Program-made: the position numbers and the translations under genes
The notes under the pieces: model-generated
Databases searched by the model: none
What the model saw: only the letters and a program-made list of their open reading frames with translations
Told to the model about the DNA's origin: nothing
In this document: positions 321 through 54,886 of the stretch, one piece after another
Numbering within the stretch: the stretch's first letter is position 1
Layout: every line of letters starts with the position of its first letter
Source: Squalus acanthias
Lineage: Eukaryota
NCBI GenBank assembly: GCA_030390025.1
Contig: CM059439.1
Span: forward strand, 44,888,001 to 44,952,000
Reading direction: 5' to 3'
DNA length: 64,000 bases

Positions 321-329
321 GGAGGCTCC

Positions 330-2140
330 TTTACTACAAGGTTATTCATTAACCCTGTCTCATTGCACAATACCAGATCTAAAATAGCCTGTTCCCTAGT
401 TGGTTCCTCCACATATTTTTCTAGAAAACTATCTTGAATGCATTCCATGAACTTGTCCTCTGCAGTATTACTGCAAATTTGGCTTGCCCAGTCTAAATCA
501 AATTAAAGTTACCCTTAAATCTGGCCTTAAATCTATTTGATTTCCGGCTCTTCACAGTTCTGACGAAAGGTCATCGACCTGAAACGTTAACTCTCTTTCT
601 CTCTCCACGGATGCTGCCTGGCCTGCTGAGTTTTTCCAGCGTTTTCTGTTGTTATTTTAAAGTTACCCTTGTTACATGCATCTCTAATTTCCCGATTTAT
701 ACAGTGCCCAACATTACAACTATTGTTAGAGGGCCTATAAACTACTCCCACTAGTTGTTTTTAACCCCACCCAAAGTGATTCTACATCTTGTTTTTCTGA
801 GCTAAGATCCTTTCTCTACTGTCTTCATCCCATCCTTTATTATCAGGGCTACCAACCCCCTCCTCTTCCATTCGGCCTAGAATATTTAGTTCCCTACCTT
901 GGTCACTCTGCAACCACGTCTCTGTAATGGCTATTAGATCAAACCCATTTATTTCTATCTGTGCTATTAATTCATCTATTTTATTATGAATGCTTCACAT
1001 GCCTGCAGCTTTAACTTTTTTCCATTTTCCCCTGATGCCCTATTACCTTCACGCTCTGTCCCTTCCTGATCCACACTGCTTATTTTTACTCAAACCACTA
1101 CTCTGCTCTACAGCATTGACATTACTCTTACTGCTTTTGAATTTACCCTTTCCTGAATCCTCCATACCCCCTTCATTAGTTTAAAGCCCTATCTACCGCC
1201 CTAGTTATTTGATTCACCAGCAGTGAACCCAGCCTGGTTTAAGTGGAGCACATCCCAACGGAACAGCTCCCTTTTTCCCCCCAGTACTGGTGCCAGTGCC
1301 CCATGAATTGAAAGCCCTGCCTCCCACATCACTCTTTCAGCCATGCATTTAACCTTCTAATCTGCTTGTCCCTATGCCAATTTGCACGTGGCTCAGGTAA
1401 CAATTCAGAGTTTTATTACCGGTGAGGTTCTGCGTTTTAATTTGGACCCTAGGTCCTCAAACTCTCTCAGCAGAACCTCATTCCTAGTTCTACCTACGTC
1501 GTTAGTTCCTACGTGGACCACAACTGAATCCTTCCCCTCCCACTCCAGGTTATTCTACAGCCACTAGGTGATATCCTTAAGCCTGCCACTGGGCAGGCAA
1601 CAGCCTTCAGAACTCCTGGTCACGGCTGCTGAGAACAGTATCTATTCCCCCTGACTGTACTGTCCCCTACCACTACAACATTCCTTTTCACTCCCCCCCA
1701 CTTGAATGGCCTCCTGTACCGTGGTGCTGTATCATCAGTTTGCTCATCCACCCTGCAGACATTGCCCTCATCCACACAGGCAGCAAGAACCTCATAACTG
1801 TTGGATAAGGGCAAAGGCCGAGGCTCCTCCAGCACTGCTCCTCACCTGCCCTTACCTGTCTGAGTCGCAGTCACACCCTCCTGTCCCTGACGACTAACCA
1901 GACCTGTACCACTACCTAACCTAAGGAGTGTGACTGCCTCCAGGATCCAAGTGTCCAGGTAACTCTCCCCCTTCCCGATGCCCCGCAATGTCTGCACCTC
2001 GGACTCCAGCTCAACAACTCTGAGCTAATGTTCCGAGTTGCAGTCACTTACTGCAGACGTGGTCGTCCGGGATCACAACGCTCTCCACAAACTCCCACAT
2101 GCTGCAGTTGCGGCACACCACCTGCACTGCCATCCCTAAA
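330..2140 (-). mobile_element. Decayed CR1 LINE 5' portion (ORF1 with SGNH-esterase motif, and start of ORF2 endonuclease)
   Basis: Minus-strand ORF 1620..1835 carries PLPLSNSYEVL...VVVVGDSTVRG, the GDS esterase motif of CR1 ORF1. Endonuclease-like remnants lie at ~700-1000. Boundaries are approximate. Confidence 0.7.
556..592 (+). ncRNA. Minimal type I hammerhead ribozyme motif in a 140-bp Penelope-type insertion (517-656)
   Basis: AGTT-CTGACGA-A-AGGTC(ATC)GACCT-GAAA-CGT-T-AACT gives helix I, the conserved core, helix II and a palindromic ACGT helix III. The insertion is flanked by a direct repeat ttaaagttaccctt at 503-516 and 657-670. Confidence 0.7.
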
Positions 2141-10480: not shown

Positions 10481-11033
10481 ACGAGCCACATAGAGAAGGC
10501 ACGTCCAGATTCAATTCAGGCTCTGCGCTAGGTTACATGATCTCAGTCTGGGCAAAAGGAACAGAGAAAACAATAACCAGCCAAGTTACTGCCCGATTGC
10601 TGTCCAGTGATACCTACTAAAGTAAATATGAACACCAAGTTAGGGCAGGGTGAGCTTTGCTGTGATGATCAAATAGTTTGCTGATACTAGGCTCATGCAT
10701 GAAGAATAAAGAAATGGAGGTACAGCCCTCTTGCACCTTCACTGTTCAGGAAATGTGGATGGGTCAGGTAACTCAGCAGTAAGAACAATGGATTTTGATT
10801 GAGTCAGCATGTAGTCCCAACGCAATGGCCCAATAAACTGTCGTAGAATGCTAGCCACTGAAGCAACTTTCCAAGCTTCAGTGTCAACACAATCTGCTGC
10901 AATCTCAGATCACACCAGGTTGCAGGTTCAAATGGCCCGAAAATTACCCTCTGCATACTTGCACTTACCGAGAGATCAACAGAAAATGCTGTAAATACTC
11001 AGCAGGTCAGGCAACATCTGTGGAGAGAGAAAC

Positions 11034-11075
11034 AGAGTTAACGTTTCAGGTCGATGACCTTTCGTCAGAAACTCT
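11034..11075 (-). ncRNA. Minimal type I hammerhead ribozyme motif in a palindromic Penelope-type insertion (10981-11162)
   Basis: The minus strand reads AGAGTTT-CTGACGA-A-AGGTC(ATC)GACCT-GAAA-CGT-T-AACTCT. Long inverted arms surround it. Flanking direct repeat taccgagagatcaac / taccaagagatcaac. Confidence 0.7.
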
Positions 11076-12827
11076 GCTCCTCTCTCCACAGATGCTGCCT
11101 GGCCTGCTGAGCATTTCCTGTTTTTATTTCAAATTTCCAGCATCCGCAGTATTCAGCTTTTGTACCAAGAGATCAACCCGGAAACAACCTCAGAAGCCCT
11201 CTGGCTGGCTGTCCATCTCTGTGCCCCTCTCCCCAGGATCAATTTCCAGGTCCTCACTTACTTGCTGAACTTTCCAGGCCCCTCCCAATTGTCTGAGCTT
11301 TGCAGGCAAAACACTCCCCCACCACCCTTTCAAGAGAATTTCCTAGGCAGAGATGCATTCCATTGAACATTTATTATGTTAAGGGCGTTATATAAATACA
11401 AGTTGTTGTTGTTGAACAGCACCCCGCTGTATTCAGCCCTCTCCTCCCATTGGCCGCTCCCCCCACTATTTTTCTCCCTTCACTCCACCTCCCTCCATCC
11501 CCCGCCACTTCTCTCCCACCTTGGCCCAATTATCCTGTCCGTCATGAATATTGCCCTTGGTCTTAACTTCTCATATGCAACACCACAGTGCGTCAACTAG
11601 TATTTGGAAAGGTTCTCACTGTTTGGTAACCTAAAATTAGTAGAGAGAATTGCAGAAACCAGAAATAGATTCCTAAATCCATCATCATATTTAGAAACTA
11701 GTAGCAGGTCAACTTTAAGATTTCCACTTTTATATAACTGTGACTTCTGTTTGAAATACCAGTCCTACTTCACCACCCACAAAAAAGTTACTTTTCTAAG
11801 TTTATATACCTACAGTGATTTCAATGCTATCATCTTATCTCATTGTCCTTATGACATTTATTAGTTTCTTGACATCTGTACATCTCCATCACTGCCTTGT
11901 AATTAGTCAAATCAATTAAACACTTTAAATAATAGTCGGCAAGAGCGGAGTATTCAATTTCTCATATCATACAACACAAATTTAAGTAGCCAGATTGAAT
12001 TCTATGTAACACAAGCTACAGTTATTTCAGTATAAGAATATCACCTGTTGAAAACATCAAATCAAACAATCGTGTCCGTAACATCACAAGCTGCAGGCTA
12101 CAATAAAAATTCAATACATTAAGCATAGTCGTCCAATAATTGCATAATGCTAGATTAATGCCCTAGAGATTGTGCTCCTGTATCTTTGGCGGTTAGAATT
12201 TTCTTAGTGATTTTTACAAGCGGTTATTGAACTCAGGCGATTAAGTAAATTGAAAAGATGCTGTGATATTAAATTTAAGTATTACACTTCAGAAGGATTG
12301 AAGTAGATTGGCCACAGAGCCAATTAGAAATTTTGCTTTGAGTACAATCTGGTTTCATAATCTCTCTTCTTGGAGTTACACTACAGTGAAGAAAGCATTA
12401 AAAAATTACAATGCTAATGAGAAAATATTTTCTTTGCATTTTAGAAATTCTAGAACTTTTTTGGTAAAATAAAATGATACAACCACCAATTTTTCACAAA
12501 TTTGGTAGAACTAGAAATAAAAGATTACTTGCATGTTCAAACATTTCTATGTTCATTGTATACCATTAATAAAAATCAAATACATTTGTGCAGCCAAATT
12601 TTACCACAGTCTGCAGAAGGAAGTTTAAAAGATATTTCACTAAAACTTACTTACATTTTGAAAATAACCAGCAGTAGGCAATGAATGAGATACAGAAGAT
12701 GTTTAACAGCACTAGCACATATAGAAAGATAGGCCTCAACGTCCCACAGAACTTACAAATCAAAACTCTTAGAACTCTAGATTTATTACATGATTTAATT
12801 CCGGATTTAAAAAAAACCACAACTTAC

Positions 12828-19062: not shown

Positions 19063-22000
19063 CTATAGATTGAAAAATTCATAGGAAAAAAATTAGCATT
19101 CTCTAATTGCAACTATGTAAAACATGTTAACGCACATATTCTAGTGGATCTCTAATGGCATGGCTCACAGTGAGTCATAGATTACACTGTTGCAGTGAAG
19201 GGGGTATATGTGGTGTGGTCGTATTTAGATGTGTTGGGGTGAGAGACTTGATGGGTAGGGGCTAGAGCTGGAGTGTGGAAGCAGGGGAAGGGGAGATTGT
19301 GGCCTCATTGAACCAGAGAGACTGCAGTGGAACAGATTTGACGGGGTTTTGGATTGAGAGCACTAAGTTAGGGATGAAAATGTAATGGCACAATGCAAGA
19401 AATAGAATGAAATTAAATGACATACTTAACATCCAAAGTGAAATAAAGCGGTATGCAATTTTCTAAAAGCAACACCACAGGACACTCATGACAATATATT
19501 CGAAGTCTTGCGTGTAATGCGGACTTCCTATGTCACACTTTCCCCATCATGCTTTCCCTGTTAAGACTTTGTTGATAACCACCTCCCCAATTGCTTTAAA
19601 ACACCATATCCTCCAACTCATTGGGGTAATGTTATGGGGCATCTGCTGGAATTATTAATAAATGTGTATGTAGCACGTACATCCATTTAGTCACACTTCC
19701 TGTGCCACACCTTGGTCACACTTGTGTATCACAGGTCTTTTTTAAAAATCACATTTTCGAGGCATGGGAGTCATGTGGACAGCCTGCTTTTCAGCCAGCA
19801 GAAAAGTTGTGTGTTTTTAAGATTGTACTGACTAGCGGAGAAGCTGGACTAGTTTTGAAACAGCAGCACGTTTCATACCACAAGACGCAAGTGTCTGTTT
19901 TAAAGTCTATGAAAAAGTGAGTTGCATGCTTATTATTTTATATCAAGGAGAATAGTATTGTTTGTTATTCACTGTTTTTAACGGTGTACGCTCAGTCGGA
20001 AGGTGTACGCTCAGTCGGCTTTTTAAGCAGCGGAGAATCATGTGGCTGCACTTGATACATCCTTTAACTAGTGGACAGTAGAAGGGTTCTTTCTTGCGGT
20101 CCCTGGGTCTCACTGTAATGTGCCTAGATATTGGGAAGGAAATGTGCACTCTGGATCATAGGGTTATGGGTGTGGTTGTGATACTGAACCTGAGAAACTA
20201 TCGTTAGAACCCAAAATCATGACACTATACTTTCCAGAATATGCTCCTACAATTCAAGGATTGTTTTTTTAAATTCAATCTGGGATGGGATAGGTCGTTA
20301 GCATCCATTAGTGAGGTTGAGGTCATGGGAGAATTATAACATTTTATTTAGATACCATAAAACAGCATCTGTGTCACCATAGTCAGATCCTGCCAGTTAT
20401 AAATAAACTGGTCTTGCATCTAGCACACAAACACTTTTTTTTTTTAAACTGAAAAAGCCAATCGTTGGCATGAAGCATTAAATTTTACAAGCCAATATAA
20501 CTGCCCTCCGATTGACCTCAGTAGTTTATAAGTAGCTACACTGACCTGAATTTGCCTATTTACAGCAGTGACTTGAAAGGCACTACCTGTGACAATGCCA
20601 CAGAAGATCCATCAGTGATCACCAAAAGGAATTGGAAATGAGTTTGAGAGACTGCTCAGCGCATTGTGTGAAAACTATTTTTTAATTGGAAGCTTGAATC
20701 ATGCTTTTTTTTTTCCTGCAGACATCTGCCCACATTCGACATACCATTCAGCCCAAAGAATGTGTGCCTGATGCAAGAATGTTATATTAGCAAATCTCCT
20801 GTAGCATTGCTCACAGTAAGTCAGAAGCGACAGTCTCTTATTACTTTTCTCCCAGGCCTTGATCCTGCTTGCCAGGACTAGCTTTATTTTCCATATATTT
20901 CCTTTACCTATATTTTTCATTTTTAAGCTGAGAATGTAGAACAAGATGGTCTGCAAGATGCACCAACTGGAGATATATATCTTAGTTAGCAATACTGGAG
21001 AGTGGAAATGGGGTTTAGCGGTCTTGAGAGCAGTCCTGTGCCTTGGTAGCACTGGGGAATGGTCCTGGAGTTTGACTGTACTGCAGTGCGACTGCTGGAG
21101 TTTGACAAGTCCTTTGATTGGCTAGGAGGAGGAACCTGGGGTTTTACAGAACTGCTCATCTCTGCATTTCTCCCTCTCTCTTTCACTCTTCTTTCTTTTC
21201 AGGTGGGTACCTGGAGGGGAAGAATTGCCAAGGGCTACAGGTTGCATTTTTCAGTGGTGGATATGGAGCAAATGCAGCTTGTAGGCCTCAATGGCTCTCT
21301 TCCCATTCACTCCCACTTCACTGCAACCCTCTTGATTACCGACTATTGCTATGCTCCGGTCATATCCCCCATCACTTTTGCTTCTCACTATCCAATTGAC
21401 ACTGCACCCTTCCCATCACCCCATCATTCTCATTATGTCCCTGCACCTTTCTCGTTTGCAGTGCTCATGCAAGCTTCTATCCTTGCCTACTCCATGCTGC
21501 CATTATTTCTTCCAAATCCCATGCATTCACTCCCCAATGTACCACTTCCTTGCCACGCATCTCCCTCTCCGCGCCTTCACGCACTTCTCCTCCCCATCAT
21601 CGCCCCCACAACCCCATTTCCCCCACCCCCTCAGTTCCCATCCATTTTCCTCTTTCTCTCTCCATGTCACTCCTTAACCAACCCCCCTATTTAGGAGCGG
21701 CTAGAAATAATTAAAGTTTAAATTTACCGTGGAGCAACCATTAGAAATAAAACTTGCTTAGAAATAATTTAAAATTAAAGAATGAGAGAATTTTTTTTTT
21801 GAAGGGTCTGGTGAGGAAAAACAGACAGTGGGGCTAGGCCAACTGGCGGGGCAGACGAGGCAGCAGTGTTATGGTGGCTGAAAATAGGTCAAGTGCTTGG
21901 AGGCCTAATGCAAAGCAGCAGGAAGGCCAGTTGGTTGCAAGACTGGGCAGAGGTAGATTTGACAGCAGATCAAGCCAGAACAGCACAAATGAGTGGGGCC

Positions 22001-24364
22001 AGTAAATCTGAATCAGAAGTGGGATTAGGCAAGCCAGAAGGGCAGGATGCAGGCCCAGAATCAGAACAGAGCCCACGGGAAAAAGGGGAAGGAAAGAAAA
22101 GCCAGAGCCAGCAGGCCAAAGCAAGGGCAGGGTCCAGGAGAAATTGGAAGAGCAAAAAGAGCTGGAGGGATGGAAGAAATATTCAATTAAAATCTACAAA
22201 ATTAAAAATTAAACTAATTTACCTGACTTGGGAAACAGGAAAAAAAAAATAGGTTGAAAAAAGAAAATGGCGGGCAGACCTGGGCAACTTGTCCCAGAGG
22301 GCCAGCACTAGTGGAAGAACCAAATTGGAGACATTATCAGATTACCTATTAACAGTAGTAATAGCAGGCATTACAGTTAGATAGTTATTTTTCCCTCAGG
22401 CACTACCAAGTGTGACAGGTACCAAGATTCACAAATGCATGACTCAATCACGTGGTGTGTGCTGACTCTCTCTATGCCTTCAAGAGGGAGCTGAACTGGT
22501 TCTTGACTGGGGCAGTGATCGTATCATATCGAAGGCAAGCGTCTTTATAGATAAACACTTGGTCCATGTGATCTCCTGGATTGGTTTTGGTCGCCCGAGG
22601 TGTAATGGAATAGCCATATTTCAGAAAAATACACCATCCTATGAACAGAATTCTAGCTTTATTAAAACATGATAAACTGGGGTTAAAAATCTAAAAGCCT
22701 CAACGACACAAGCCGTAAAACAGAACACAGGCTTCTGAGATAAGATGAAGTGTTAACACAAAAGTTGTAAACACCACACAAGCTTTTGAAATGGGAAATG
22801 GTTGTAAATACTAACACAATGGCCTCATTGAAGAAGCAAATGGTTGGTTCCAAGGAGTCTGTAGTTTGGAACCAACACAATAGCAATGCCCAAGTAAAGT
22901 GTTAAAAATTAACACGTCGAACAGAAAAACAGATTAAAAAAACCATGTGCCTTTGTAAAGGTAATCAAAATGAAACAGGAAACACGATTATATATATAAC
23001 CAGCTAAGATGGCTAGGAAAACAAACACCCTGGTTGAAGTGTTTTTGATTTACAAATTGTAAAAGGTACAAACAAGAGACTTTGTAAATATTACATCAAT
23101 AGACGTACCAAGCAATCACATTGTGTTTGTATTGAAAATGGAAGAGTTAGGAGACACGACTGCTAATAAGCAGTTAAGCCAATATTAAGAATTGAATTGA
23201 AGACCTTCGAAAGAATGGCATCAAAGCGATAAATCGATAATAACCATTTTATATGATAAGTTTTTGAAACACCTATACAGCAGACAGGATTCTGAAAGTT
23301 AACAGCTGAATGAACAGTAAGAATAGAAAGAAGTCAACAGAGGTATGGCTAGAGATAATTAGCTTACATCAGCAGAAAACTTCAAAGAATATACCACTAA
23401 AAAAGGGTATAAAAATAGAGCTTTTCAAATGAGAAAGTCAGAAGTCGCTGGAAAGGCAAGCGATTCTCACCTTCAGAACCATTCTGTAGGCCTACAACTG
23501 AGTCTCGGGTAATCAAGGTATTTGATTTTGGTGGATATTCTGGATTAAGAAATAAGTAGAAGTGTGGAAATGTAATGAAGTTAAGATTTGAGAATAAGGA
23601 TCTCTGATAAGAAATGTAAGCTATTTGTATTTTGGACTGTTAAAGTTGCGATGAAATCAACAGCTGTTAACTACATGTCGGTTCTTTAATATATCTATAT
23701 ATTTTTAAATTGTCTGAGTATTTCTGTATCAATCTCGCAAACTCAATTTCTGTACACGCCTTTTGACAGGAGTTGCAGAATTCTGGGGGATTTTCCAGAC
23801 CCTCATAATATCCGGAAAGTTACAGTCTAGTTAAACTTGTTAAAAGTGCTATCCGGAGGACGGTAACATCTTCAGGTCATTTCTTTCCTTTAGGGAGAGA
23901 TAGTCTGAACCTTTAGACCTAATTAAGCATCTCTAGGATTCGGCTATCTCTAACTTTAGTTGAAGGGGAACATCTGGGGAATACGCCTGATCTGGGGTAG
24001 CCCGAAAAGGGCTAGGACTTGTAATTATCCCTTCAGAGGGAGGTTGGAGAGAATTTTCCCAGAATATTATCCCCTTATTGGCCCTGGTTTTTTTGCTTCT
24101 CCCAAGAGATTACATAGCCGGCGGTGGGGGGGGAATGAGGAGGGCGGAAGTGTTTAGTCATGAAGCTCCGACCATCATGGTGTGCGGCAGGCTTGATGAA
24201 CCAGCTGGTCTTTTCCTGCCCATTAATTTTGTATGTTTGTATGTTCAATCGTGGCAAAAAGAAAAAAAGGTGTGAAACAGGAAGTCTCAAGAATTTTAAA
24301 ATACTACTACAGTCGACATTTCAGTTGTTTAAACACAAAAAAAACTAATGGACTAAGACAGTAC

Positions 24365-24386
24365 CTGTTACAGGATTTTCTGGCAT
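24365..24386 (-). CDS. PATJ: PATJ first coding exon (MPENPVT); whole exon probably 24365-24423
   Basis: ATG CCA GAA AAT CCT GTA ACA G|gtac resembles the MPENP N-terminus of PATJ rather than MPDZ. The upstream acceptor follows a (CT)n tract. Confidence 0.88.
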
Positions 24387-25859
24387 GATTATGTCTTCGG
24401 TTGTTTAGTCTTTTTCAAGGAATCTATAATAGAGAGAGAGAGAGAGATATTACAGACAGGAAATACAAAAAATGACATCCAACTCAGATCAGTTTCTAAT
24501 TCGACAATTATGTTGCTTTTCTACAGCATCTACTACATGCAGTTCTGGTCACCACACTACAGTGGGGACATTTTAGCTTTGATGAGGGTATACCAAAGGA
24601 TGACTACATTGATAGCTGGAACCGATACTTAGGCACATGACCTAAAGGAAGAGGCTATGGATATTGGGAATTTTTACACTTCTCATTGATCAGCTTTCTG
24701 TGATACATACAGGAGGACCCTTATTATGTTCAAGATATCCAAATCAAGCTACTGAGAAATCTACACAGATCTGTAAGGTTTCTGCTTGCCCAACATGGAA
24801 TGCTCACATTCTCTTCATAGGGCCACATCCAATTTACACAAATCCAAAAAGCTTAAATACAACTGGCAGAGCCAAGTGTGCAGAGATACTGTTGGGAGTT
24901 TGACCAGCTAAAACCACAGCATAAAAGAGCTCCTTCTCGCACCTTGTCCAACTAGGACCATCCTTCTCATTGCAGCATAAGCTTAGTGATAGCTGGAGCC
25001 AACTGAAGAATTTCTGCCCCATTTACAGATGCTCTCCTTCAGATTTCATTTGTGAGCTGGGCTGGCTGGTCAATTATCGACAGTGCCCTGGAGTTCTGCA
25101 CATTTGCCTGGTTCAAGTATCCGATTACCAAGTCAGCCACATAAGGTTCTCGGTTCCAAGCTTCCACTGTCATCTTGGAGCCACCTTGACCCCAGAAGGA
25201 CTTCGCTTACCTCTTTCACCCCCCCCCCCCCCCCAAAGTTAGTCATTACAGAACTAACAAGCACGGGTTCGAGTTCTTGCTTGGAGGGCAGCAGGTACTA
25301 AGAGCTCCTCAAGGGCAATATGGTGAGTGGAACTACTCACCATAAGACGTGTGAATACCATCTTCCTGACCACAGTATTTACATACACCATATCCCATTC
25401 AATGCTGGTTCAAACAGTTGCAGGTGCAGAGCTTCAGCAGCAGCTGCCTACCTCTCTGCAACAGTCATAGAAGGCACTGAGCCCTAGATTTAGGAATGTG
25501 TGTCCTCATAAAAAGCTGCAAGTAATGCAGCAGTCATCCCAAGTCTGAGTGTTTTCTGATTGGATATATAATGAGCATCTGCTAGCAGCATGGTGGAAGG
25601 ATCTGCACAGATCATGTCGTGCAACCACCTTGATGTCCTTGATATCCAAGCCCAATGCTATGTTCCAGGCGTACTAATTGCCAAATGTTTAATCCAGGGT
25701 TGAGGGCCTCTTACAAAGAGGCACACTCACCGTGAAGCTAACTTCTCCTGTAGGTTTCTATTCCAGGACATCGTAAGCCACGGCCCTCTCATCTCGGTCA
25801 CATCTGGTCTGCTGAAGCCAACTTCCACACTAGAGTTTACAAAATGGACTCCTTTTCCC

Positions 25860-27000
25860 TCTGCTGATGATTCCCCTCCACCATGAGTGATAGGATCCTC
25901 AACCAAATCTGTTCTATTTCCTACCCTTACCTCTTCTCTGTCTCACTCAGAATTAAAGTCTCCTCTCCCCCACCCGCCCCCCACCCACCATCCTCACCTT
26001 CCACCAGCCCCCACATTTGGAAGGTAATCTTGTCATTTCCAATGTGATCCCATCACCAAACACATCTGCTCCTCTTTTCCTCTCAGCATTCCAAAGGGGT
26101 CAATTCTTTCATGATAACCTGGTTCATTCTTCCATCACCCATAGCACCTGCTCTCCTTCTCCTGGCACCTTTCCATGCAAGCATGTGAGACACAACAACT
26201 ACCCATTCAACACCTCCCACAGGGCCCCAAACATTCCTTCCAGGTGAGACAGCAATTGGCAGGTATTTTCTCCAACCTAGTATACTAATTCACTGCTCAT
26301 GGTGCAATCCTCTCTACATTGGGGAAACCAAACACAGATTAGGTGATCACTTTGCCCCCCCCATCCCATGGGGACCCCATGTTGGCACCCCATGTTGGCA
26401 CGTGGTCTGCATTACTTTTTTCTTCCACCAAACTCCTGGCCGCTCGAGCCTCTTGCACTTCGGCAGTTTTGTATGCTTCCCATTCTACTTACCTATCCAC
26501 TTTAGCTCTTCTTACACTGTGTCGTGTAAATGTCTTTTATTTCTTTGATTTGTCTCATTTTGTCTTCTGCACATATCACTTCTGCCATTTAACCATTTCC
26601 TGTTCCCCACCTTAGCAATTGACAGATCATTCTATTTACTTTGCTGTGTACACGCTCTTTCAGATGAAACGTTAAACCGAGGCCCCAGCTGCCCTCTCAC
26701 GTGGACATAAAAGCTCCCATGGTAGAAGAGCAGGAGACAAATTGGCTGCCACATTTCCTAACATTACAATAGTGACCACAGTTCAAAAGGTACTTCATTT
26801 GCTGTGAACTGCTTTGGGACTTCATGAGATTGTGAAAGGCCCTATATAAATGCAAATTTGCTCTTTCTTTTTAAATGCTGTTCATCTGTAATATGTTAGT
26901 TCTGAAGAAGGGTTTCTAACTGAAATATCAGCTGACCTGTGTTCTCAACAGATGCCACCTGACCTGCTGAGTGTCTCTCACATTTTCAGTTTTTGTTTCA
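25860..27000 (+). mobile_element. Decayed Penelope-like element (GIY-YIG endonuclease remnant plus terminal region), interrupted by a DeuSINE fragment at ~26655-26870
   Basis: 26270-26355 reads NLVY*..HCSWCNPLYIGETKHRLGDHF, a GIY-YIG motif. The 3' terminal sequence resembles the hammerhead-bearing termini elsewhere in the window. Confidence 0.7.
26897..26934 (+). ncRNA. Degenerate minimal hammerhead motif at the Penelope terminus
   Basis: TAGTT-CTGAAGA-AGGGTT(TCT)AACT-GAAA-TAT-C-AGCTG. The core is intact; helices I and II are weakened. Confidence 0.45.
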
Positions 27001-27900: not shown

Positions 27901-30070
27901 GGGACAGGCCACGCCCCTCCCAGGACAGGTCACACCCCCTCCCCAGGCCACACCCCCAGGACAGGCCATGCCCCCTCCCTGGGACAGGTCACACCCCCTC
28001 CCCAGGCCACACCCCCAGGACAGGCCATGCCCCCTCCCTGGGACAGGTCACACCCCCTCCCCAGGCCACACCCCCGGGACAGGTCACACCCCCTCCCCAG
28101 GTCACACCCCCAGGACAGGCCATGCCCCCTCCCTGGGACAGGTCACACCCCCTCCCCAGGCCACACCCCCAGGACAGGTCACACCCCCTCCCCAGGTCAC
28201 ACCCCGAGGACAGGCCATGCCCCCTCCCTGGGACAGGTCACACCCCCTCCCCAGGCCACACCCCGAGGACAGGCCATGCCCCCTCCCTGGGACAGGTCAC
28301 ACCCCCTCCCCAGGCCACACCCCCGGGACAGGCCATGCCCCCTCCCTGGGACAGGTCACACCCCCTCCCCGGGACAGGTCACACCCCCTCCCCAGGCCAC
28401 ACCCCGGGGACCGGCCATGCTCCCTCCTTGGGACAGGTCACACCCCCTCCCCAGGCCACACCCCCAGGACAGGCCATGCCCCCTCCCTGGGACAGGTCAC
28501 AACCCCTCCCCAGGCCACACCCCCAGGACAGGCCATGCCCCCTCCCTGGGATAGGTCACACCCCCTCTCCAGGACACACCCCCGGGACAGGCCATGCCCC
28601 CTCCCTGGGACAGGTCACACCCCCTCCCCAGGACAGGCCACACCCACAGGACAGGCCCCTCCCCCTGGGACCTGCCCCCCCCCGCGACAAGCCACACCCC
28701 CTGGGACAGGCTGCAACTCCACCCCCCCTCCCAGGACAGGCCACTCCTTCCCCCGTGACAGTCCGCACCGCCCCCAGGACAGGCCGCACCTCCTCGGGAC
28801 AGCCCACACTGCCCCTGAGACAGGCCGGCGGGACAGGCCGCACCTCCCCCCGGGACAGGCCGCACCTCCCCCAAGTCAGGCCACCCCTCCCTCTGGGAAA
28901 GACCGCCCCTCTCCGGGACAGGCCGCACCTCCCCCCGGGACAGGCCGCACCTCCCCCGGGTCAGGCCACCCCTCCCTCCGGGAAAGACCGCCCCTCTCCG
29001 GGACAGGCCGCACCTCCCCCCGGGGCAGGCCGCACCTCCCCCCGGGACAGGCCGCACCTCCCCCTGGGACAGGCCGCACCTCCCCCGGGTCAGGCCGCAC
29101 CTCCCCCGGGTCAGGCCACCCCTCCCTCCGAGACAGACCGCCCCACTCCGGAACCGACCGCCCCTCCCCCTGGGACAGGCCGCACCTCCCCCCCGGGACA
29201 GGCCACCCCTCCCTCCGGCACAGACTGCACCTCTCTGGGACAGGCGGCACCTCCCCGAGACAGACCGCCCCTCCCCCCGGGAGAGGCCACACCTCCCCCA
29301 GGTCAGGCCACCCCTCCCTCCGGGACAGGCTACCCCTCCCTCCGGGACAGGCCACCCCTCCCTCCGGCACAGACAGCACCTTTCTGGGACAGGCCGCACC
29401 TCCCCGGGACATGCCGCACCTCCCCCCGGGACAGGCCGCACCTCCCCACCCCGGGACAGGCCACCCCTCCCTCCGGCACAGACAGCACCTTTCTGGGACA
29501 GGCCGCACCTCCCCCCGGGACAGGCTGCACCTCTCCGCGACAGGCCGCACCAACCCAGGACAGGCCGGTGGGACAGGCTGCACCGCCCCCAGGACAGGCC
29601 AGCGGGACAGGCCGCACCAACCCAGGACAGGCCGGTGGGACAGGCTGCACCGCCCCCAGGACAGGCCGGCGGGACAGGCCGCACCAGCCCAGGACAGGCC
29701 GGTGGGACAGGCTGCACCGCCCCCAGGACAGGCCGGCGGGACAGGCTGCACCACCACAGAACAGGCCGCACCTCTCCGCGACAGGCTGCACTACCCCCAG
29801 GACAGGCCAACGGGACAGGCCGCACCACCCCCAGGACAGGCCGGTGGGACAGGCCGCACTACCCCCAGGACAGGCCGACGGGACAGGCCGCACCACCCCC
29901 CGGGACAGACAGCACCTCTCTTGGACAGGCCGCACCTCCCCCAGGACAGGCTGCACCTCTCCGCGACAGGCCGCACTACCCCCAGGACAGGCCGGCGGGA
30001 CAGGCCGCACCACCCCCAGGACAGGCCGGCGGGACAGGCTGCACCGCCCCCAGGACAGGCCACACCTCCC
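27900..30070. repeat. C-rich compound minisatellite built on GGACAGG units
   Basis: A 59-bp unit (GGGACAGGTCACACCCCCTCCCCAGGCCACACCCCCAGGACAGGCCATGCCCCCTCCCT) grades into ~21-bp (GGGACAGGCCGCACCTCCCCC) and 14+20-bp units. Confidence 0.95.
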
Positions 30071-30129
30071 CCAGTACAAACCAGCAGAACAGTCCGTTCC
30101 TTCCCCAGGCGAGGCCGAACTCTAACTGA

Positions 30130-30560
30130 CATTGAGCGTGAGAGGTTGCAGCCCATCTTGAAGGGCGGCTCCTCGATTTCTAGCTGCACTTCAGTCCCAC
30201 GCTCCTGATCTTTGGCCACCTGGTGAGGAAGGGAGCAGGCAAATCGGAGTACCTCCTCGTAGTACTGCTCCTGGGCCTGGCCAAGGTGGCCATCAACAGG
30301 TCCAGGCAACGTGCCGTCGAGGGGGTCGTTTGGCCCGACTGCCTGCCTCTCTCCCACTGTTATGTTCCAGGTGTCCCTGGAGTTGGAGTACGCAGTGTCC
30401 ACCAGCACACTCGAGGCCTTCTGCGACCGGTGGGCACCAGAGGGATTGAAGTGCTTCATCACCCCCGGAACAAAACTTTAATTTAATTTTTTTAAGTTTA
30501 ATTTAAGTTATATATATGTTACAGTTTACTGGTTGTGCCCCTTTAAGAAGGGGGCACTTG
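30130..30560 (+). mobile_element. Tx1-clade non-LTR retrotransposon 3' fragment
   Basis: HFSPTLLIFGH...LLLGLAKVAINRSRQRAVEG resembles the Tx1/L1-group ORF2 C-terminus. It is frameshifted. Confidence 0.6.
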
Positions 30561-31382
30561 CTACCTTTTTAATTGACGACGACAGCTGTCATCAATTACA
30601 TAATTAATATATGAAAGGTAGAACTGTAACTGGGGGCTGGGATATTAGACCATCATAACTCTGCAGGCTAATGGTCCAACCTTTTGGACCTGTGCACCGT
30701 ATCTGTATTAAAATCAGTGAGCAGACTGCATATGCAAAACTCCCTGGACAGCAAGACCGCCCTGGCACAAGTTGAGGGTTTGTAATGGATAACTTCTCAG
30801 GTTCAGTGTTGTCATTTGGTTCCGGAAGTGGATCCCATGCCCCTTACATGCTGATGTTGACTTGCACAGCCCATTTGTATGATACATGGGTGTAACAGTG
30901 TTTTTGTGATCTAAACTGGATGTTCATGTCTTTCACATGTAACGCCACATGTGCCTCCAATTTATTTTGAAGGCAGAACAAGAAAACTCTTGATAAGGTG
31001 AGGCCAAATATAAATTCTTAAGCTGTTTTATTTCACAGCAAATATAACTATGGAGCAACAGTTACAATCAGACTCACTTAATTTAATCAGTACAACATTG
31101 TCTTCATGTAATGATACAATATAATGAACATGCTACACTTTGCCACATCAATAGGACATCATGTTCGGCTTAAAGAAAATAATTCCTAACTACGCTCTTA
31201 CATTCTCCTTCTGAGGCTGTTGAAAGCTTGCTCTCACAGCTTTCTGTTTAAAAGCCTAATTGACTTCGTAAGTCTCTGTCTCTATTTTTTACCTGTGATA
31301 AAGGGCAGTTAGAAAGATTAACTGTAATCGTCTGGCAGTGTTCTCTGACTATATATGCTGTGCCGATATACATCTCTTCACT

Positions 31383-31419
31383 TCACCTGACGAAGGAGCA
31401 GCGCTCCGAAAGCTTGTGA
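31383..31419 (+). ncRNA. Minimal type I hammerhead ribozyme motif, second Penelope-type family
   Basis: TCAC-CTGACGA-A-GGAGC(AGC)GCTCC-GAAA-GCT-T-GTGA. Helices I and II are perfect, helix III is the palindrome AGCT, and AATAAA follows at ~31426. Confidence 0.75.
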
Positions 31420-32459
31420 TTTCAAATAAAACTGTTGGACTATAACCTGGTGTTGTGCGACTTCTCATATTTTTTTACTTTTCATTGTTTACAGCCAGAA
31501 AGGAAGGCCTTACACACAAACCCTGCCATGTGCATAAGACCCAAGACTTCCCAACGCAATGCACGTGAGCTGTTTAACAATTGGTCGCGTCTATTCGCAA
31601 CACCAGATTTCTAATTGGTCCCCTTGGAGGACGAGACCATATTTCTAATTGGTCCTCTTGGAGGACAAGACACACCCAGCAATTTATCTGGAATGAGTAA
31701 TTAGATCCTGCCTGCCTAAGTAATTAAATACTTAGCAATGTGTAATTCGAGCCATTCATTCTGACTGCCAGACTCCAGACAGAGCTCTCAGAACAGACAG
31801 GGCTCACCGTCGCAGGTTAGGACCTTCTCCCCCGCAACGACCCCACCCGCCCCACCCCCCGGCCTCCACAACAAGTTCCTGCCCCTCCAACAAGTTCCTA
31901 AGCTTCCCCCAACCCCCGAGTTTCTCACCTTTTCCCTCCCCAATAAGTTCCTGACCTTCTTCCCTGCCCAAGTTCCTGACCTGCACTCGCCTGTGTTCCT
32001 AACCTTCCTCTTCCCACCCTCCCCCACCGAACAAGTTCCTGACCTTCCCCACCACCCTCTCGCAATAGATGTGGCATTGTGTGTGGGTCACGGATTGTTA
32101 ACAGGTTTAATGGGCATGAAGTGAACAGTGACAGTGTCATGACTTCTAGATTTCATCCCGTGCAATGATGTCACTTGCCGCACAGGCACCGAGCTTTCCG
32201 AGAAATCAACCAGCTCTAGGGGGAGGAGAGGGAGAATGTGATGCGGGTGTAAAGTGGGTGGAGTTCGAAGAACGTGATCCGTCTTCCCATCTGGATCACA
32301 TTCTCTATCTCATCCCGCCTTTCGACCTGGATCACGTTCTTCCCCCATCCCCACTGCTCTCCGTGCTATTTACCACCGCCCCTCCCAAACCCCGCCCGCG
32401 AGTTCCTGACCTTCTCCTCCCATGAGTTCCTGACCTCCTCTCCCCCTCAGAGCTCCTCT

Positions 32460-34940
32460 CTCCCTTCGATCCTCTTTTCCTTCGATCCTCTCTCCCCCCA
32501 ATCTCCTCTCTCTCTCCGATCTCCTCTCTCTCCCCCCAATCTCCTCTCTCCCCCCGATCTCCTCTCTCTCTCCGATCTCCTCTCTCTCCCTCCAATCTCC
32601 CCTCTCTCCGATCTCCTCTCTCTCTCCGATCTCCTCTCTCTCTCCGATCTCCTCTCTCTCTCCGATCTCCTCTCTCTCCCTCCAATCTCCTCTCTCTCCC
32701 TCCGATCTCCTCTCTCTCTCCGATCTCCTCTCTCTCGCCGATCTCCTCTCTCTCTCTCCAATCTCCTCTCTCCCTCCAATCTCCTCTCTCTCTCCGATCT
32801 CCTCTCTCTCCCTCCAATCTCCTCTCTCCCTCCGATCTCCTCTCTCTCCCTCCGATCTCCTCTCTCCCTCCGATCTCCTCTCTCCCTCCGATCTCCTCTC
32901 TCCCTCCGATCTCCTCTCTCCCTCCGATCTCCTCTCTCTCCTCCGATCTCCTCTCTCTCCTCCGATCTCCTCTCTCTCCCTCCGATCTCCTCTCTCTCCC
33001 TCCGATCTCCTCTCTCTCTCTCCGATCTCCTCTCTCTCTCCGATCTCCTCTCTCCCTCCGATCTCCTCTCTCTCTCCGATCTCCTCTCTCCCTCCAATCT
33101 CCTCTCTCTCTCCAATCTCCTCTCTCTCTCTCCGATCTCCTCTCTCTCTCCGATCTCCTCTCTCTCTCCGATCTCCTCTCTCTCTCCGATCTCCTCTCTC
33201 CCTCCAATCTCCTCTCTCTCTCCAATCTCTCCTCTCTCCCTCCAATCTCTCCTCTCTCCCTCCAATCTCCTCTCTCTCCCTCCGATCTCCTCTCTCACTC
33301 CGATCTCCTCTCTCTCCCTCCGATCTCCTCTCTCTCTCCGATCTCCTCTCTCCCTCCGATCTCCTCTCTCCGATCTCCTCTCTCCGATCTCCTCTCTCCC
33401 TCCGATCTCCTCTCTCTCTCCGATCTCCTCTCTCCCTCCGATCTCCTCTCTCCGATCTCCTCTCTCTCTCCGATCTCCTCTCTCCCTCCGATCTCCTCTC
33501 TCTCTCCAATCTCCTCTCTCTCTCCGATCTACTCTCTCTCTCCGATCTCCTCTCTCCCTCCGATCTCCTCTCTCTCTCCGATCTCCTCTCCCTCTCCGAT
33601 CTCCTCTCTCTCCGATCTCCTCGCTCTCTCTCCAATCCTCTCTCTCCCTCCAATCTCCTCTCTCTCTCCGATCTCCCCTCTCTCTCTCCGATCTCCTCTC
33701 TCTCCCTCCGATCTCCTCTTTCTCCCTCCGATCTCCTCTCTCTCTCTCCGATCTCCTCTCTCTCCCTCCGATCTCCTCTCTCTCTCCGATCTCCTCTCTC
33801 TCTCCGATCTCCTCTCTCTCTCCGATCTCCTCTCTCCCTCCGATCTCCTCTCCTCTCTCCGATCTCCTCTCTCTCTCCGATCTCCTCTCTCCCTCCGATC
33901 TCCTCTTTCTCTCTCCGATCTCCTCTCTCCCTCCAAACTCCTCTCTCTCTCCGATCTCCTCTCTCTCTCCGATCTCCTCTCTCCCTCCGATCTCCTCTCT
34001 CTCTCTCCGATCTCCTCTCTCTCTCCAATCCTCTCTCTCCCTCCAATCTCCTCTCTCTCTCTCCGATCTCCTCTCTCTCCGATCTCCTCTCTCTCTCCAA
34101 TCCTCTCTCTCCCTCCAATCTCCCCTCTCTCTCCGATCTCCTCTCTCTCTCCAATCTCCTCTCTCTCTCCGATCTCCTCTCTCTCTCTCCGATCTCCTCT
34201 CTCTCTCCGATCTCCTCTCTCTCTCCGATCTCCTCTCTCTCTCCAATCTCCTCTCTCTCTCCAATCTCCTCTCTCTCTCCGATCTCCTCTCTCTCTCTCC
34301 GATCTCCTCTCTCTCTCCAATCTCCTCTCTCTCTCCGATCTCCTCTCTCTCTCTCCAATCTCCTCTCTCTCTCTCCGATCTCCTCTCTCTCCCTCCGATC
34401 TCCTCTCTCTCTCCGATCTCCTCTCTCTCTCCGATCTCCTCTCTCTCTCCGATCTCCTCTCTCTCTCCGATCTCCTCTCTCTCCCCCCATGATCTCCTCT
34501 CTCCCCCATGATCTCCTCTCTCTCTCCGATCTCCTCTCTCTCTCCGATCTCCTCTCTCCCTCCGATCTCCTCTCTCTCTCCGATCTCCTCTCTCTCCCCC
34601 CATGATCTCCTCTCTCCCCCATGATCTCCTCTCTCTCTCCGATCTCCTCTCTCTCTCCAATCTCCTCTCTCCCTCCAAACTCCTCTCTCTCTCCGATCTC
34701 CTCTCTCTCTCCGATCTCCTCTCTCCCCCCATGATCTCCTCTCTCTCTCCAATCTCCTCTCTCCCTCCAAACTCCTCTCTCTCTCCGATCTCCTCTCTCT
34801 CTCCGATCTCCTCTCTCTCCCTCCAATCTCCTCTCTCTCTCCGATCTCCTCTCTCCCTCCAATCTCCTCTCCATCTCCGATCTCCTCTCTCCCTCCGATC
34901 TCCTCTCTCTCTCCGATCTCCTCTCTCTTTCTCCGATCCC
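32460..34940. repeat. Polypyrimidine/polypurine minisatellite, unit ~16-20 bp (CCGATCTCCTCTCTCTCT)n
   Basis: Directly visible tandem array with CCGATC/CCAATC variants separated by (CT)n of variable length. Confidence 0.97.
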
Positions 34941-35589
34941 TTCTCTCCCCCCCTCCCCCTCCCCTCCGATTCCTTTTCTCTTTCTCCCCTTTCGATCCTC
35001 TCTTTTCTCCCCCCCCCCGCCCCACCCTCGGTCACCAACAGATCCCCTGGCCACCTTTGCACGAACCCGCGGACAGCGTGGCCCACAGTGCAGGCCGCTG
35101 TTGGGTACTGCACATGCGCGGTTCTGGTATACCGCACGCTTGCGCAGAAGGCCGCAAAGGTGTTCGTGCAAATAATAACAGCGTTACCAATTACCAAATC
35201 AGGCTAATTGCTTATTGTTTTCAGTCTTTGGGGGAAACAACAGAACAAACACATACTTGTACGTATAAATTTAGAGACCCCAGTACATACAAAATTAAAG
35301 CCCTTCACATCCTCTCTCCATCCTTCCAATCCCTCCATTCTCTATTCGATCCTGCTCCCTCATACCCTCATACCTCCCTAAACCCTCTCCCATCTTCCTC
35401 CTCCTTCCCATCCTTCTGTTCCCCCATTCCTTCCCCTGCCCCTTCACCTTCCCCCCTCCCCTCTGCCTTCCCCTCCTCCCCTTCCCCTCCCCCCCACCCC
35501 CGCTTCCCATTCATCCTTCTCCCCATCTCCTTCCCCATCCCCTGTCTGCCATTCCTTCCAGTCTCTCTCACTTGCAACCATTGATCTTC

Positions 35590-35860
35590 AGACTCTGGCC
35601 TTCTGAGCATCCAACCCTCCATCTCCTAATGGTAGCAGAACTTTCAGCCAACTAGGCCTTGCTCTGCGGGATTCCTTCCAAAAACCTCTCTGTCTCTCTA
35701 CTTCCCTCTCCTTTAAAAATTTCCTCAAATCCCACATTTGTGCCCAACTCTTCAATCACCTCTTTGATTTTTCTCCCCAGCTTGGTGTTCTGTTTCTCTT
35801 GTGTACTCCTCTAAAGTGCCTTGGTATATATTGTATATAAAGATGTTTTATAAATGCATG
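35590..35860 (+). mobile_element. L2 LINE 3' fragment
   Basis: ctctggccttctgagcatcc...aaagtgccttgg...tttataaatgca, an L2-type 3' end. Confidence 0.6.
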
Positions 35861-36560
35861 GTGTTCTTCCACAGTATTTGGATTCCATGTTGTGTTTCTA
35901 TACAGTATATATTTGGATACAAGTAATTTGTGTAGTTAGATATAATTATTGTATTTATATATCAGTATGATATTTATGTATGATATTTTTGTACCAGTAT
36001 TATATTGGTATTGTATTTATGTACAGTTTGAATACCAATTTTATATTCAGTATTACATTTTTGCATATTTTGGGTGTCATATTATATTTGTATATCAGTA
36101 TTGTATTGGTGTATAATATTTAGGTACCAGTATTGGTTTCTCTGTGAAGCGCCTTGGGGCATTTTACTACATTAAGGGCACTATATAATTACAAAACATT
36201 ATGGGGGAAAAATTAGGTCGCGCCCCATTTGGGGCGCAAATATCGTCTGGACGCAAAAATTAGCGCCTGGCGCTAATTATCGCCACTGACTGGAAACTTC
36301 ACTTTTACCGCCCCGGGAGGTGATTGGAGCGCTAAATCAGGTGCTGCACACCTGTCTTAAGGCGCAAAGGCTGAGCAGTGAGGCGCTAACTCAGCGCGCG
36401 AGCGCAGCGCAGCTGCTGCCAGTTAGCGAGGGAACACAGACACACTGGCGCCGGCCAGTTCTTAAAGTGGGGGGGCCAACTTGCTCCCCAGCCACACCCT
36501 GCTCATTGCAGCCTTGAATCTCGGCCTGGAGAGACCTGTGAATCCATTTTGCTGCCAAGG

Positions 36561-54108: not shown

Positions 54109-54659
54109 TATGCGTTGATTTAATGAGGACCCGAGAAGATGGCTTCTCCAAGCCTGTTCACGCTACAGGGTCTCAAAGGCAGCAGCAGTCTTTCTTTCCG
54201 TCTAACTAAGTAAAAACAATCTTTATTTTATCTGATTTTCTTTTATGGTTCTCTTCCTGTTGGATACAACCCTATCTAATGCTTTATGAGCGTCCAGTTG
54301 TTCAAACAGATTGCAAAACGGAGATGAGAGGCCCCATTCCTTTTCACACCATACTTCGTATGTTGCTTCCTGTCATTGCTTTTACTGAGTCATAGCTTTG
54401 TTGTAAACAATCTTTTGATCTTCTCATAGGAGCACATTACCTTGCATTTCCAATAAATTGTTTGCTTTCCTAATGCTACGTTTGTGTTCTGTGTGGTTCA
54501 TGATATTAACATTAAGCGCACCTTCAGTAACTTGTGTACATAGAAGTACATAGAACTTGCAACACAGAAATGGGCCCAACTAGTCTGCATTGCACAATAG
54601 CAAAATACTGCGGATGCTGGAAAACTGAGATAACAACAGAAAGCGCTGGAAAAACTATT

Positions 54660-54694
54660 CTGACGAAGGGTCTTCGACCTGAAACGTTAACTCT
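54660..54694 (+). ncRNA. Minimal hammerhead motif in a 165-bp Penelope-type insertion (54593-54757)
   Basis: CTGACGA-AGGGTC(TTC)GACCT-GAAA-CGT-T-AACTCT, with 27-bp perfect inverted arms. TSD tagtctgcattg at 54581-54592 and 54758-54769. Confidence 0.65.
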
Positions 54695-54886
54695 GTTTCT
54701 CTCTCCACGGATGTTGCCTGGCCTGCTGAGTTTTTCCAGCGCTTTCTGTTGTTATTTTAGTCTGCATTGGCGTTTACCCTCCACGCAAGCAAATAGTTTA
54801 ATCCCATTTACCAATCCTGTTCCCCATATTCCTTCAACCCCTTTTCTTTCATGCATCTATCCAATCTAGTCTTGAATGTTGATATA

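Follow-up and report, generated by a model that had tools for sequence, protein, structure and literature searches.

The insert and its target site

In the window, i.e. the whole 64-kb stretch of DNA analysed here, a 140-bp insert (517–656) is enclosed by two identical copies of TTAAAGTTACCCTT, situated at 503–516 and 657–670 (Table 1). The stretch corresponds to C15:44888001–44952000 of an assembly whose repeats suggest a cartilaginous fish as the host. These exact repeats confirm the insert and the 14-bp target-site duplication (TSD) described in an earlier, sequence-only reading. The paralogues of the old dispersed repeat that took the insertion are continuous across the insertion site and provide the corresponding empty sites; the 14-mer is absent in the 19 paralogous loci listed. 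Since the TSD spans an older deletion of about 18 bp, which is private to the window copy of this repeat, the 14-bp duplication arose at insertion. The repeat itself is probably a decayed LINE of the CR1/L2 type, because a paralogue encodes a peptide with GDFN..SDH motifs, which we take to be apurinic-endonuclease-like. Positions 1–300, 200 bp upstream of the insert, presumably hold the 3′ end of a LINE-like repeat.

Table 1. Features of the insert, of further copies in the window and of mini-units elsewhere in the genome
Feature	Position	Strand	Basis
Old dispersed repeat that took the insertion	321..1000	-	Comparison with paralogues
Left TSD, 14 bp	503..516	+	Exact repeat; paralogues give empty sites
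Three junction bases, AAA	517..519	+	Mismatch the element at −43 and −41
Element −40 to −5, pyrimidine-rich 3′ UTR/pseudo-LTR of Penelope-like element	520..555	+	Identity to longer copy L001
Putative minimal type I hammerhead motif, element −4 to +33	556..592	+	Direct reading; architecture as in the main text of PMC4209133
Element +34 to +97, first ORF codons as repeated in the pseudo-LTR	593..656	+	Ends at commoner 3′-end cluster (+94 to +99)
Right TSD, 14 bp	657..670	+	Exact repeat
Copy 2, 182 bp, 15-bp TSD (1 mismatch)	10966..11177; TSD 10966–10980/11163–11177	-	Direct repeats
Older copy of −4 to +99, about 70% identical	26898..27000	+	Still fits the hammerhead descriptor
Copy 3, 165 bp, 12-bp TSD	54581..54769; TSD 54581–54592/54758–54769	+	Direct repeats
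Non-coding mini-units of about 385 bp, about −103/−117 to +273/+284, hammerhead in each	L362/L363 (C1:18.72 Mb); L366 = L310 (C2:26.02 Mb); L387/L390 (C22:36.44 Mb)

Numbered from the C of the hammerhead CUGA (+1, window position 560; no zero), the insert comprises element positions −40 to +97 plus three junction bases. A copy reaching −516 (L001) is identical over −40 to +97 (137/137) and matches 138 of all 140 bases, both mismatches falling within the first three. The difference from a copy with an open 1004-codon frame (L132) amounts to 5 of 140 bases. A second in-frame ATG of the insert is located at 611–613. The AAA of the junction and the adjoining end of the TSD together repeat CCTTAAATCT, which is present again 10 nt downstream, and the junction is likely to reflect a microhomology-primed slip. 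By analogy with the Poseidon element PAc of Anolis (PMC11167929), the 3′ end of the insert is presumed to represent a start site of reverse transcription.

Hammerhead motif

Direct reading of 556–592 recovers each hammerhead part as first listed: AGUU (556–559), CUGACGA (560–566), a bulged A (567), AGGUC (568–572) opposite GACCU (576–580), GAAA (581–584), the palindrome ACGU (584–587), GUU (586–588) and AACU (589–592), with a predicted cut between 588 and 589. The CUGANGA plus GAAA core, an NUH triplet, helices I and II and a palindrome replacing helix III characterize the motif, as judged from its sequence, as a minimal type I hammerhead. A 32-nt core pattern finds 22,021 matches and its reversed control none (this and all other genome-wide counts are derived from exact pattern matching in the 3.7-Gb assembly), so the core is not due to chance. 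A scan against Rfam gave no hammerhead match at E≤5 and only weak miRNA-like matches, which are due to the inverted arms within copy 2. The lowest-energy fold of the monomer is not the hammerhead, its stability is ordinary (z −0.6), and folding lends no support either way.

Among 104 family copies the helices hardly vary. A single A-U to G-U change (26/104) and no two-sided change are seen, in a sequence that is also constrained by overlap with the ORF. This near-invariance fits selection on the putative ribozyme, confounded by the ORF overlap. Subfamilies vary at N7, in loop II and at H17, the cleavage-site base (GUU in 82 and GUC in 13 of the 104 copies); intact arrays carry CUGAUGA and GUC instead of CUGACGA and GUU. 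One subfamily (L075, L071/L072, L092) has a shortened loop of helix II and displays CCGACGA for CUGACGA, an alteration of the core which may impair cleavage, though it has spread. The genome also harbors a second hammerhead family (L183, L175, L192, L057, L044 and others) of other sequence and the same architecture, with helix I UCAC/GUGA or UUAC/GUAA and the palindrome AGCU, which probably represents another Penelope-like element (PLE) family. This family and one old copy retain the architecture with different pairs.

Further copies in the window

Two more TSD-flanked inserts with near-identical cores had been reported for the window. Their lengths and TSDs stand (Table 1), but helix I is incomplete in both, as each starts at −2 and lacks its own 5′ strand. 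In copy 2, AGUU plus an extra U is supplied by the inverted half, and in copy 3 only UU is left. Copy 2 is composed of a forward piece from −2 (11070) to about +90 and an inverted piece of +30 to +133 (11070–11164), copy 3 of an inverted piece of +132 to +70 (54594–54656) and a forward piece of −2 to +98 (54658–54757). These inverted pieces of the same element, situated on the 5′ side, were absent from the earlier description, as was the fourth, older copy, which shows U-A for C-G in helix II, the palindrome AUAU and an AUC triplet. Remnants of the ORF end lie upstream of this older copy (25792–26355). Copies 1 to 3 differ at both ends, none is in tandem (0/3), and each insert contains a single motif. 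In another part of the window, 28001–36000, the sequence is strongly skewed and GC-rich (GC 0.74 at 28–30 kb; GC skew −0.7 at 32–36 kb), probably representing simple tandem repeats.

Parent element

A 29-nt pattern from the tail (+63 to +91) has 53,148 exact matches (reversed control, 0), which, in combination with the core matches, bears out the very high copy number suggested earlier. The upstream sequence shared by the first 30 core loci extends over 2 to more than 1,100 bases and runs into RT and GIY-YIG coding sequence. Among 4,873 candidates, a protein search scored 150 matches, many of them with open 1004-codon frames. In an intact array, four hammerheads lie 3,198–3,199 bp apart, the units are 99.94% identical and encode a 971-aa ORF; partial upstream units are also present, resulting in the tandem and partial-tandem organization of pseudo-LTRs (pLTRs). 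Pfam matches of this ORF to RVT_1 (494–621; E 2.4e-5) and GIY-YIG (873–909; E 6.2e-4) are both below the curated cut-offs, and the GIY-YIG match of another copy is above its cut-off with 23.4 bits. A single ORF thus combines RT with a C-terminal GIY-YIG domain, as in EN+ PLEs. It starts with the AUG within CUG-AUG-A, and the predicted cut is 26 nt downstream. The linker CTHRRCNTC (CX4CxxC) fits the motif CX2-5CxxC, which is common to Neptune and Nematis, and is the one feature that points to a Neptune-type PLE.

The parent element has been recently active, and the family is very young. As had been supposed, the inserts are products of retrotransposition, and the motif is a minimal type I hammerhead of the Penelope type. 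In conclusion, the insert is with high probability the truncated 3′ end of a PLE bearing a minimal hammerhead, and probably a dead-end copy rather than a self-propagating mini-element. Minimal hammerheads on truncated PLE ends are already known, and the insert itself adds nothing new.

Length profile of the family

The length profile was drawn from 216 tail-anchored segments with an exact tail. Of these, 100 are the first matches on C1, and the other 116 were selected through an arbitrary trinucleotide lying 70 bases downstream (120 loci minus 4 duplicates). Both halves of some inverted pairs are counted, and 7 segments derive from two segmental duplications. The 3′ ends are bimodal, at +94 to +99 and +127 to +139. 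Of the 5′ ends, 11 are located at +34 to +62, 102 at −8 to +33, 5 at −15 to −9, 17 at −100 to −16 and the remainder further upstream. At a background of 0.196% per base, 13.5 ends would be expected between −8 and +33. The copies are therefore not merely random truncations, a reading that had been considered for them, while the window insert itself (−40) falls in the background range. The rate of 5′ stops is 1.5% per nt over +1 to +20 and reaches its maximum of 3.5% per nt over −8 to −1. The peak coincides with the hammerhead 5′ border (−8 to −3), displays a sharp upstream edge near −4 and does not lie at the cleavage site. Genome-wide, 1,120 starts at −4 and 131 at −9 were counted, with patterns that demand non-element upstream bases and each capture a similar share, estimated at about 0.4; 25,470 copies continue through −11. 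A weaker second cluster of 5′ ends is found at −100 to −126, around CTCTTAATGT repeats (e.g. L286, L327, L400, L403, L145, L168, L396).

TSDs of 9–16 bp flank 28 of 62 simple (non-inverted) short copies, compared with a single one of the 62 shuffled controls; 25 of the 28 copies begin within −8 to +9. The other 34 are without detectable TSD, and several appear to be cut by an adjacent DNA transposon. At six loci without TSD (L075, L021, L076, L280, L303, L357), the 5′ junction adjoins a sequence resembling AATTT(T)CTGGGCC, probably the terminus of a DNA transposon by which the copies were cut or captured.

Both 3′ classes show an identical 5′ peak (17/57 vs 18/61; KS p 0.69), which is thus fixed by position and not by the distance travelled; a model in which the distance from initiation sets the end was rejected, as no peak shift of 36 nt is seen between the two classes. 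An inverted neighbour occurs in 82 of the 216 segments. For 59 of 69 inverted pairs the partner reaches a tail site; 55 of the 59 combine a +97-type with a +133-type end, the tail is at one end only in 55, and the lengths are short/short in 39, long/long in 11 and mixed in 9.

A different picture emerges where ORF-bearing copies pass the upstream hammerhead, i.e. at the second passage. Here 10 of 119 copies at risk stop (8.4% vs 7.7% expected), one of them borderline at −10, whereas 102 of 205 stop at the first passage (Fisher p 2e-15), and 35 of 78 do so among array-like copies alone. The 119 copies were taken from the 150 scored rows: the first 30 rows contributed 24 and a set of 20 chosen for their odd frame length contributed 18, while 72 have 1004-codon frames and 5 were assumed. 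The 72 must reach −99, as did all of the 17 checked (17/17). Rows with broken frames (17), with 930–960 codons (6) or ending downstream of +33 (8) were left out.

Two further candidates were examined. A microhomology bias due to purine content was dismissed, because 40-nt purine fractions of 0.33–0.40 over the motif vs 0.34 in the ORF differ too little for a 7-fold effect. A splice acceptor, suggested by the pyrimidine tract and CAG at −3 (cf. the D. virilis intron ending at helix I), was not supported: in the loci examined, no copy joins the sole nearby donor-like site (+278) to −2, and the pLTR contains no canonical donor. In the main texts of the openly accessible literature, neither a shark description nor a first-passage pile-up of 5′ ends was found; Fig. 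S2 of PMC11167929 may show a similar edge.

Origin of the 5′ edge

In the proposed mechanism, the element protein would nick both target strands 9–16 bp apart, and cDNA synthesis would start at two tail sites. For the window insert, target-primed reverse transcription would have begun at the internal tail site of the element and stopped early. RNA with its 5′ end at the hammerhead 5′ border, primed at the first tail, would give rise to the 95–140-bp class, including window copies 2 and 3, and longer templates to randomly truncated copies such as the window insert. The template would be mostly uncleaved, because copies extend across the cut site. Priming would be possible only at a tail with the ORF behind it. 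By analogy with PAc, which needs RNA up to ORF +172 (PMC11167929), inserts ending at +97 or +133 would be unable to move again, since the downstream stretch to ORF +172 is missing. Due to the lack of a tandem partner for a dimeric fold, the hammerhead would be a passenger in a lone insert.

A transcription start near −4 seems on balance the probable cause of the 5′ edge, where we infer the RNA 5′ end itself. The sequence CCAGTTC with its A at −4 matches what we take to be the initiator consensus. A clear cap-derived G is not seen: G occupies −5 in 37 of the first 100 starts listed for −4, and 8 of those are fold-back-like (hand count). In Penelope of D. virilis, an internal Inr/DPE promoter is situated in the pLTR (PMC2377424). 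Half of the excess 5′ ends lie within +1 to +33 and not at −4; these would require trimming or microhomology joining. The short/short correlation of inverted pairs could come from two RTs moving in step. Given linear multi-unit RNA, the start-site model predicts an excess of full-length copies ending at −4. Since no such excess is present, long copies would need another template, an RNA extending further upstream, either as read-through multimers or as the circle proposed in PMC4209133.

It is possible, though rather doubtful, that the pile-up arises without a promoter at −4, by stalling or fall-off of RT in a folded, protein-bound hammerhead close to the site where RT starts or by 5′ exonuclease trimming down to the ribozyme. 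The stop rate is indeed raised over the whole motif. Moreover, cleavage by the PAc hammerhead needs protein (PMC11167929); the fold may therefore be stable only near bound protein, which would explain the specificity for the first passage. However, the peak is located at the far (5′) edge, a point at which the fold has already been unwound, and drops sharply beyond −8. Because the second passage shows no excess of stops, a plain structural stall is excluded.

Status of the short copies

The sequence-only reading had taken the ribozyme-bearing terminus to be mobilized alone, as a SINE-like or retrozyme-like unit. That the short copies form an independent non-autonomous family which uses the Penelope enzyme, and that the insert is a member, is improbable. 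In favor of such a family are the discrete short class, with its narrow starts among the TSD-confirmed simple copies, and the true mini-tandem derivatives elsewhere in the genome; host DNA flanked by pLTRs is also reported to be moved in trans (PMC3846280). However, the insert represents the 3′ end of an autonomous element and, starting at −40, equals a longer copy; a fixed 5′ boundary is not shared, as that of the class (−8 to −3) spreads to +33 and is off the cleavage site. No haplotype is private to the short-copy group, and the seven commonest 14-position haplotypes occur in both classes, so that no lineage with diagnostic mutations of its own appears in this sample (36 short-class keys, with limited power for rare masters). 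In addition, the 3′ ends are split alike in both classes (57/61 vs 52/46), and the three window copies, with their differing ends, include no tandem unit, whereas a retrozyme consists of tandem units with a complete hammerhead in each. Separate mobilization of the window insert is not supported.

That short inserts copy the 3′ cleavage product of the hammerhead, so that cleavage sets the 5′ end, is very improbable, and as the main route it is refuted by the few +30 ends and by the copies crossing the cut site. Starts at +30 do exceed those at +31 genome-wide (316 vs 101), one tandem unit spans +30 to +339 (L359), and of the 7 hammerhead stops seen in a set of 20 full-length copies, 2 fall at +29/+30. 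However, only 4 of the 216 sampled segments end at +30, and the forward parts of all three window copies cross the cut site. Of 30 inspected +30 matches, 7 are fold-back junctions, in which a copy reaching −4 turns back via helix I complementarity; others result from internal deletions or point changes or adjoin the end of a DNA transposon. Cleavage could account for at most about 2% of copies.

Mini-tandems and RNA templates

In 5 of the 216 segments, the copy is preceded by ORF 5′ sequence ending at +274 to +302, which is joined to the pLTR at −43 to −118. A narrow pattern for such junctions matches 38 times across the genome, with some matches counted twice. Mapping of 23 loci revealed one tandem junction common to two distant loci (387-bp unit) and an array with mixed junctions that contains at least five units of 384–391 bp. 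The junctions are placed on short microhomologies (ATC, TATCT). Judged by their sequence organization, these mini-tandems are candidate nascent non-LTR retrozymes, rare and distinct from the window copies. A single example of another kind, L359/L360 (C1:238.94 Mb), is a partial tandem of a 310-bp unit (+30 to +339) that starts exactly at the predicted cleavage site and shows the same junction twice; it could reflect a cleaved and circularized template.

It is tentatively proposed that one element uses two RNA templates. Linear uncleaved RNA from the hammerhead border would yield some 20,000–25,000 ribozyme-sized inserts, estimated as roughly half the 53,148 exact matches of the tail pattern, and an endless template, e.g. 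a unit-length circle, would yield the long copies, while microhomology jumps would create the mini-units of about 385 bp as nascent retrozymes. A unit-length circle formed by hammerhead cleavage and ligation was proposed in 2014 (PMC4209133); within the literature examined, no demonstration for an autonomous element was found. Of 21 runs, all consisting of assembled contigs, four were examined; all four contain the element stretch, and three of them the joint of +271 to −70. Their RNA origin is a guess, the species may differ, and they are silent on starts, strand and expression. This joint (L151:4471 to 4131) is of the mini-unit type and has a depth of 64–178 in runs X1, X2 and X3, from the coded organisms A and B.

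More weight attaches to the statistics of the family than to the insert itself, as they bear on how PLEs employ their ribozyme and on their true template. With more than 50,000 copies, this very young family offers a length profile that is incompatible with a simple structural stall and with ends set by cleavage. The profile places a candidate 5′ end of the RNA to within a few bases, and it leads to the prediction that long copies stem from an endless template, multimeric or circular. The mini-tandems suggest a concrete route from an autonomous PLE to a non-LTR retrozyme. If the two-template reading is true, animal retrozymes would be caught at birth from a PLE.

Comparison with known systems

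Minimal hammerheads without helix III, which may act as dimers, are found in the pLTRs of metazoan PLEs (PMC4209133). They share with the motif described here a short helix I, an unpaired nucleotide before helix II, a G-C near the base of helix II and a palindrome in place of helix III. Helix II has 5 bp here, compared with 7–8 bp in the S. mansoni families. As in the present family, most of them are single motifs ascribed to truncated PLEs; they are known in fish Xena, Poseidon and Neptune elements, and no shark family is named in the text of PMC4209133 that was examined.

PAc resembles the parent element in its tandem organization and in an ORF whose start lies at stem II, the cut following 26 nt after the ATG (PMC11167929). 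Its two internal RT start sites, which match the genomic tail, are comparable to the two 3′-end clusters found here. In PAc both strands are cut and extended, the main template is uncleaved RNA, cleavage is dispensable in vitro, and no read ends lie at the cleavage site. In contrast to PAc, the linker of the present element is CX4CxxC, the Neptune/Nematis type. The text of PMC11167929 that was examined describes neither a 5′-end pile-up at the ribozyme border nor its absence at the second passage.

Features shared with EN+ PLEs of the Neptune clade (PMC8557442, PMC3846280) are 5′ truncation, partial tandems, an inverted 5′ copy, a 30–40-bp tail at one end and the CX2-5CxxC linker, whereas the TSDs are 9–16 bp long here and 8–10 bp in canonical EN+ PLEs. 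The available text of PMC6155905, a review, and of PMC3846280 holds nothing contrary to the identification as a truncated PLE.

Animal non-LTR retrozymes (PMC7229834; bioRxiv 10.64898/2026.07.22.740005) are likewise non-coding, of a similar size range and derived from PLE pLTRs, and carry type I hammerheads; a set from cartilaginous fish is listed in the supplements of bioRxiv 10.64898/2026.07.22.740005. They are defined by hammerhead-bearing tandem units and circular RNA (PMC7229834), in contrast to the window copies, which are single fragments with variable 5′ ends. The mini-tandems of about 385 bp (L362, L366, L387/L390), however, fit the tandem part of this definition (PMC7229834; bioRxiv 10.64898/2026.07.22.740005).
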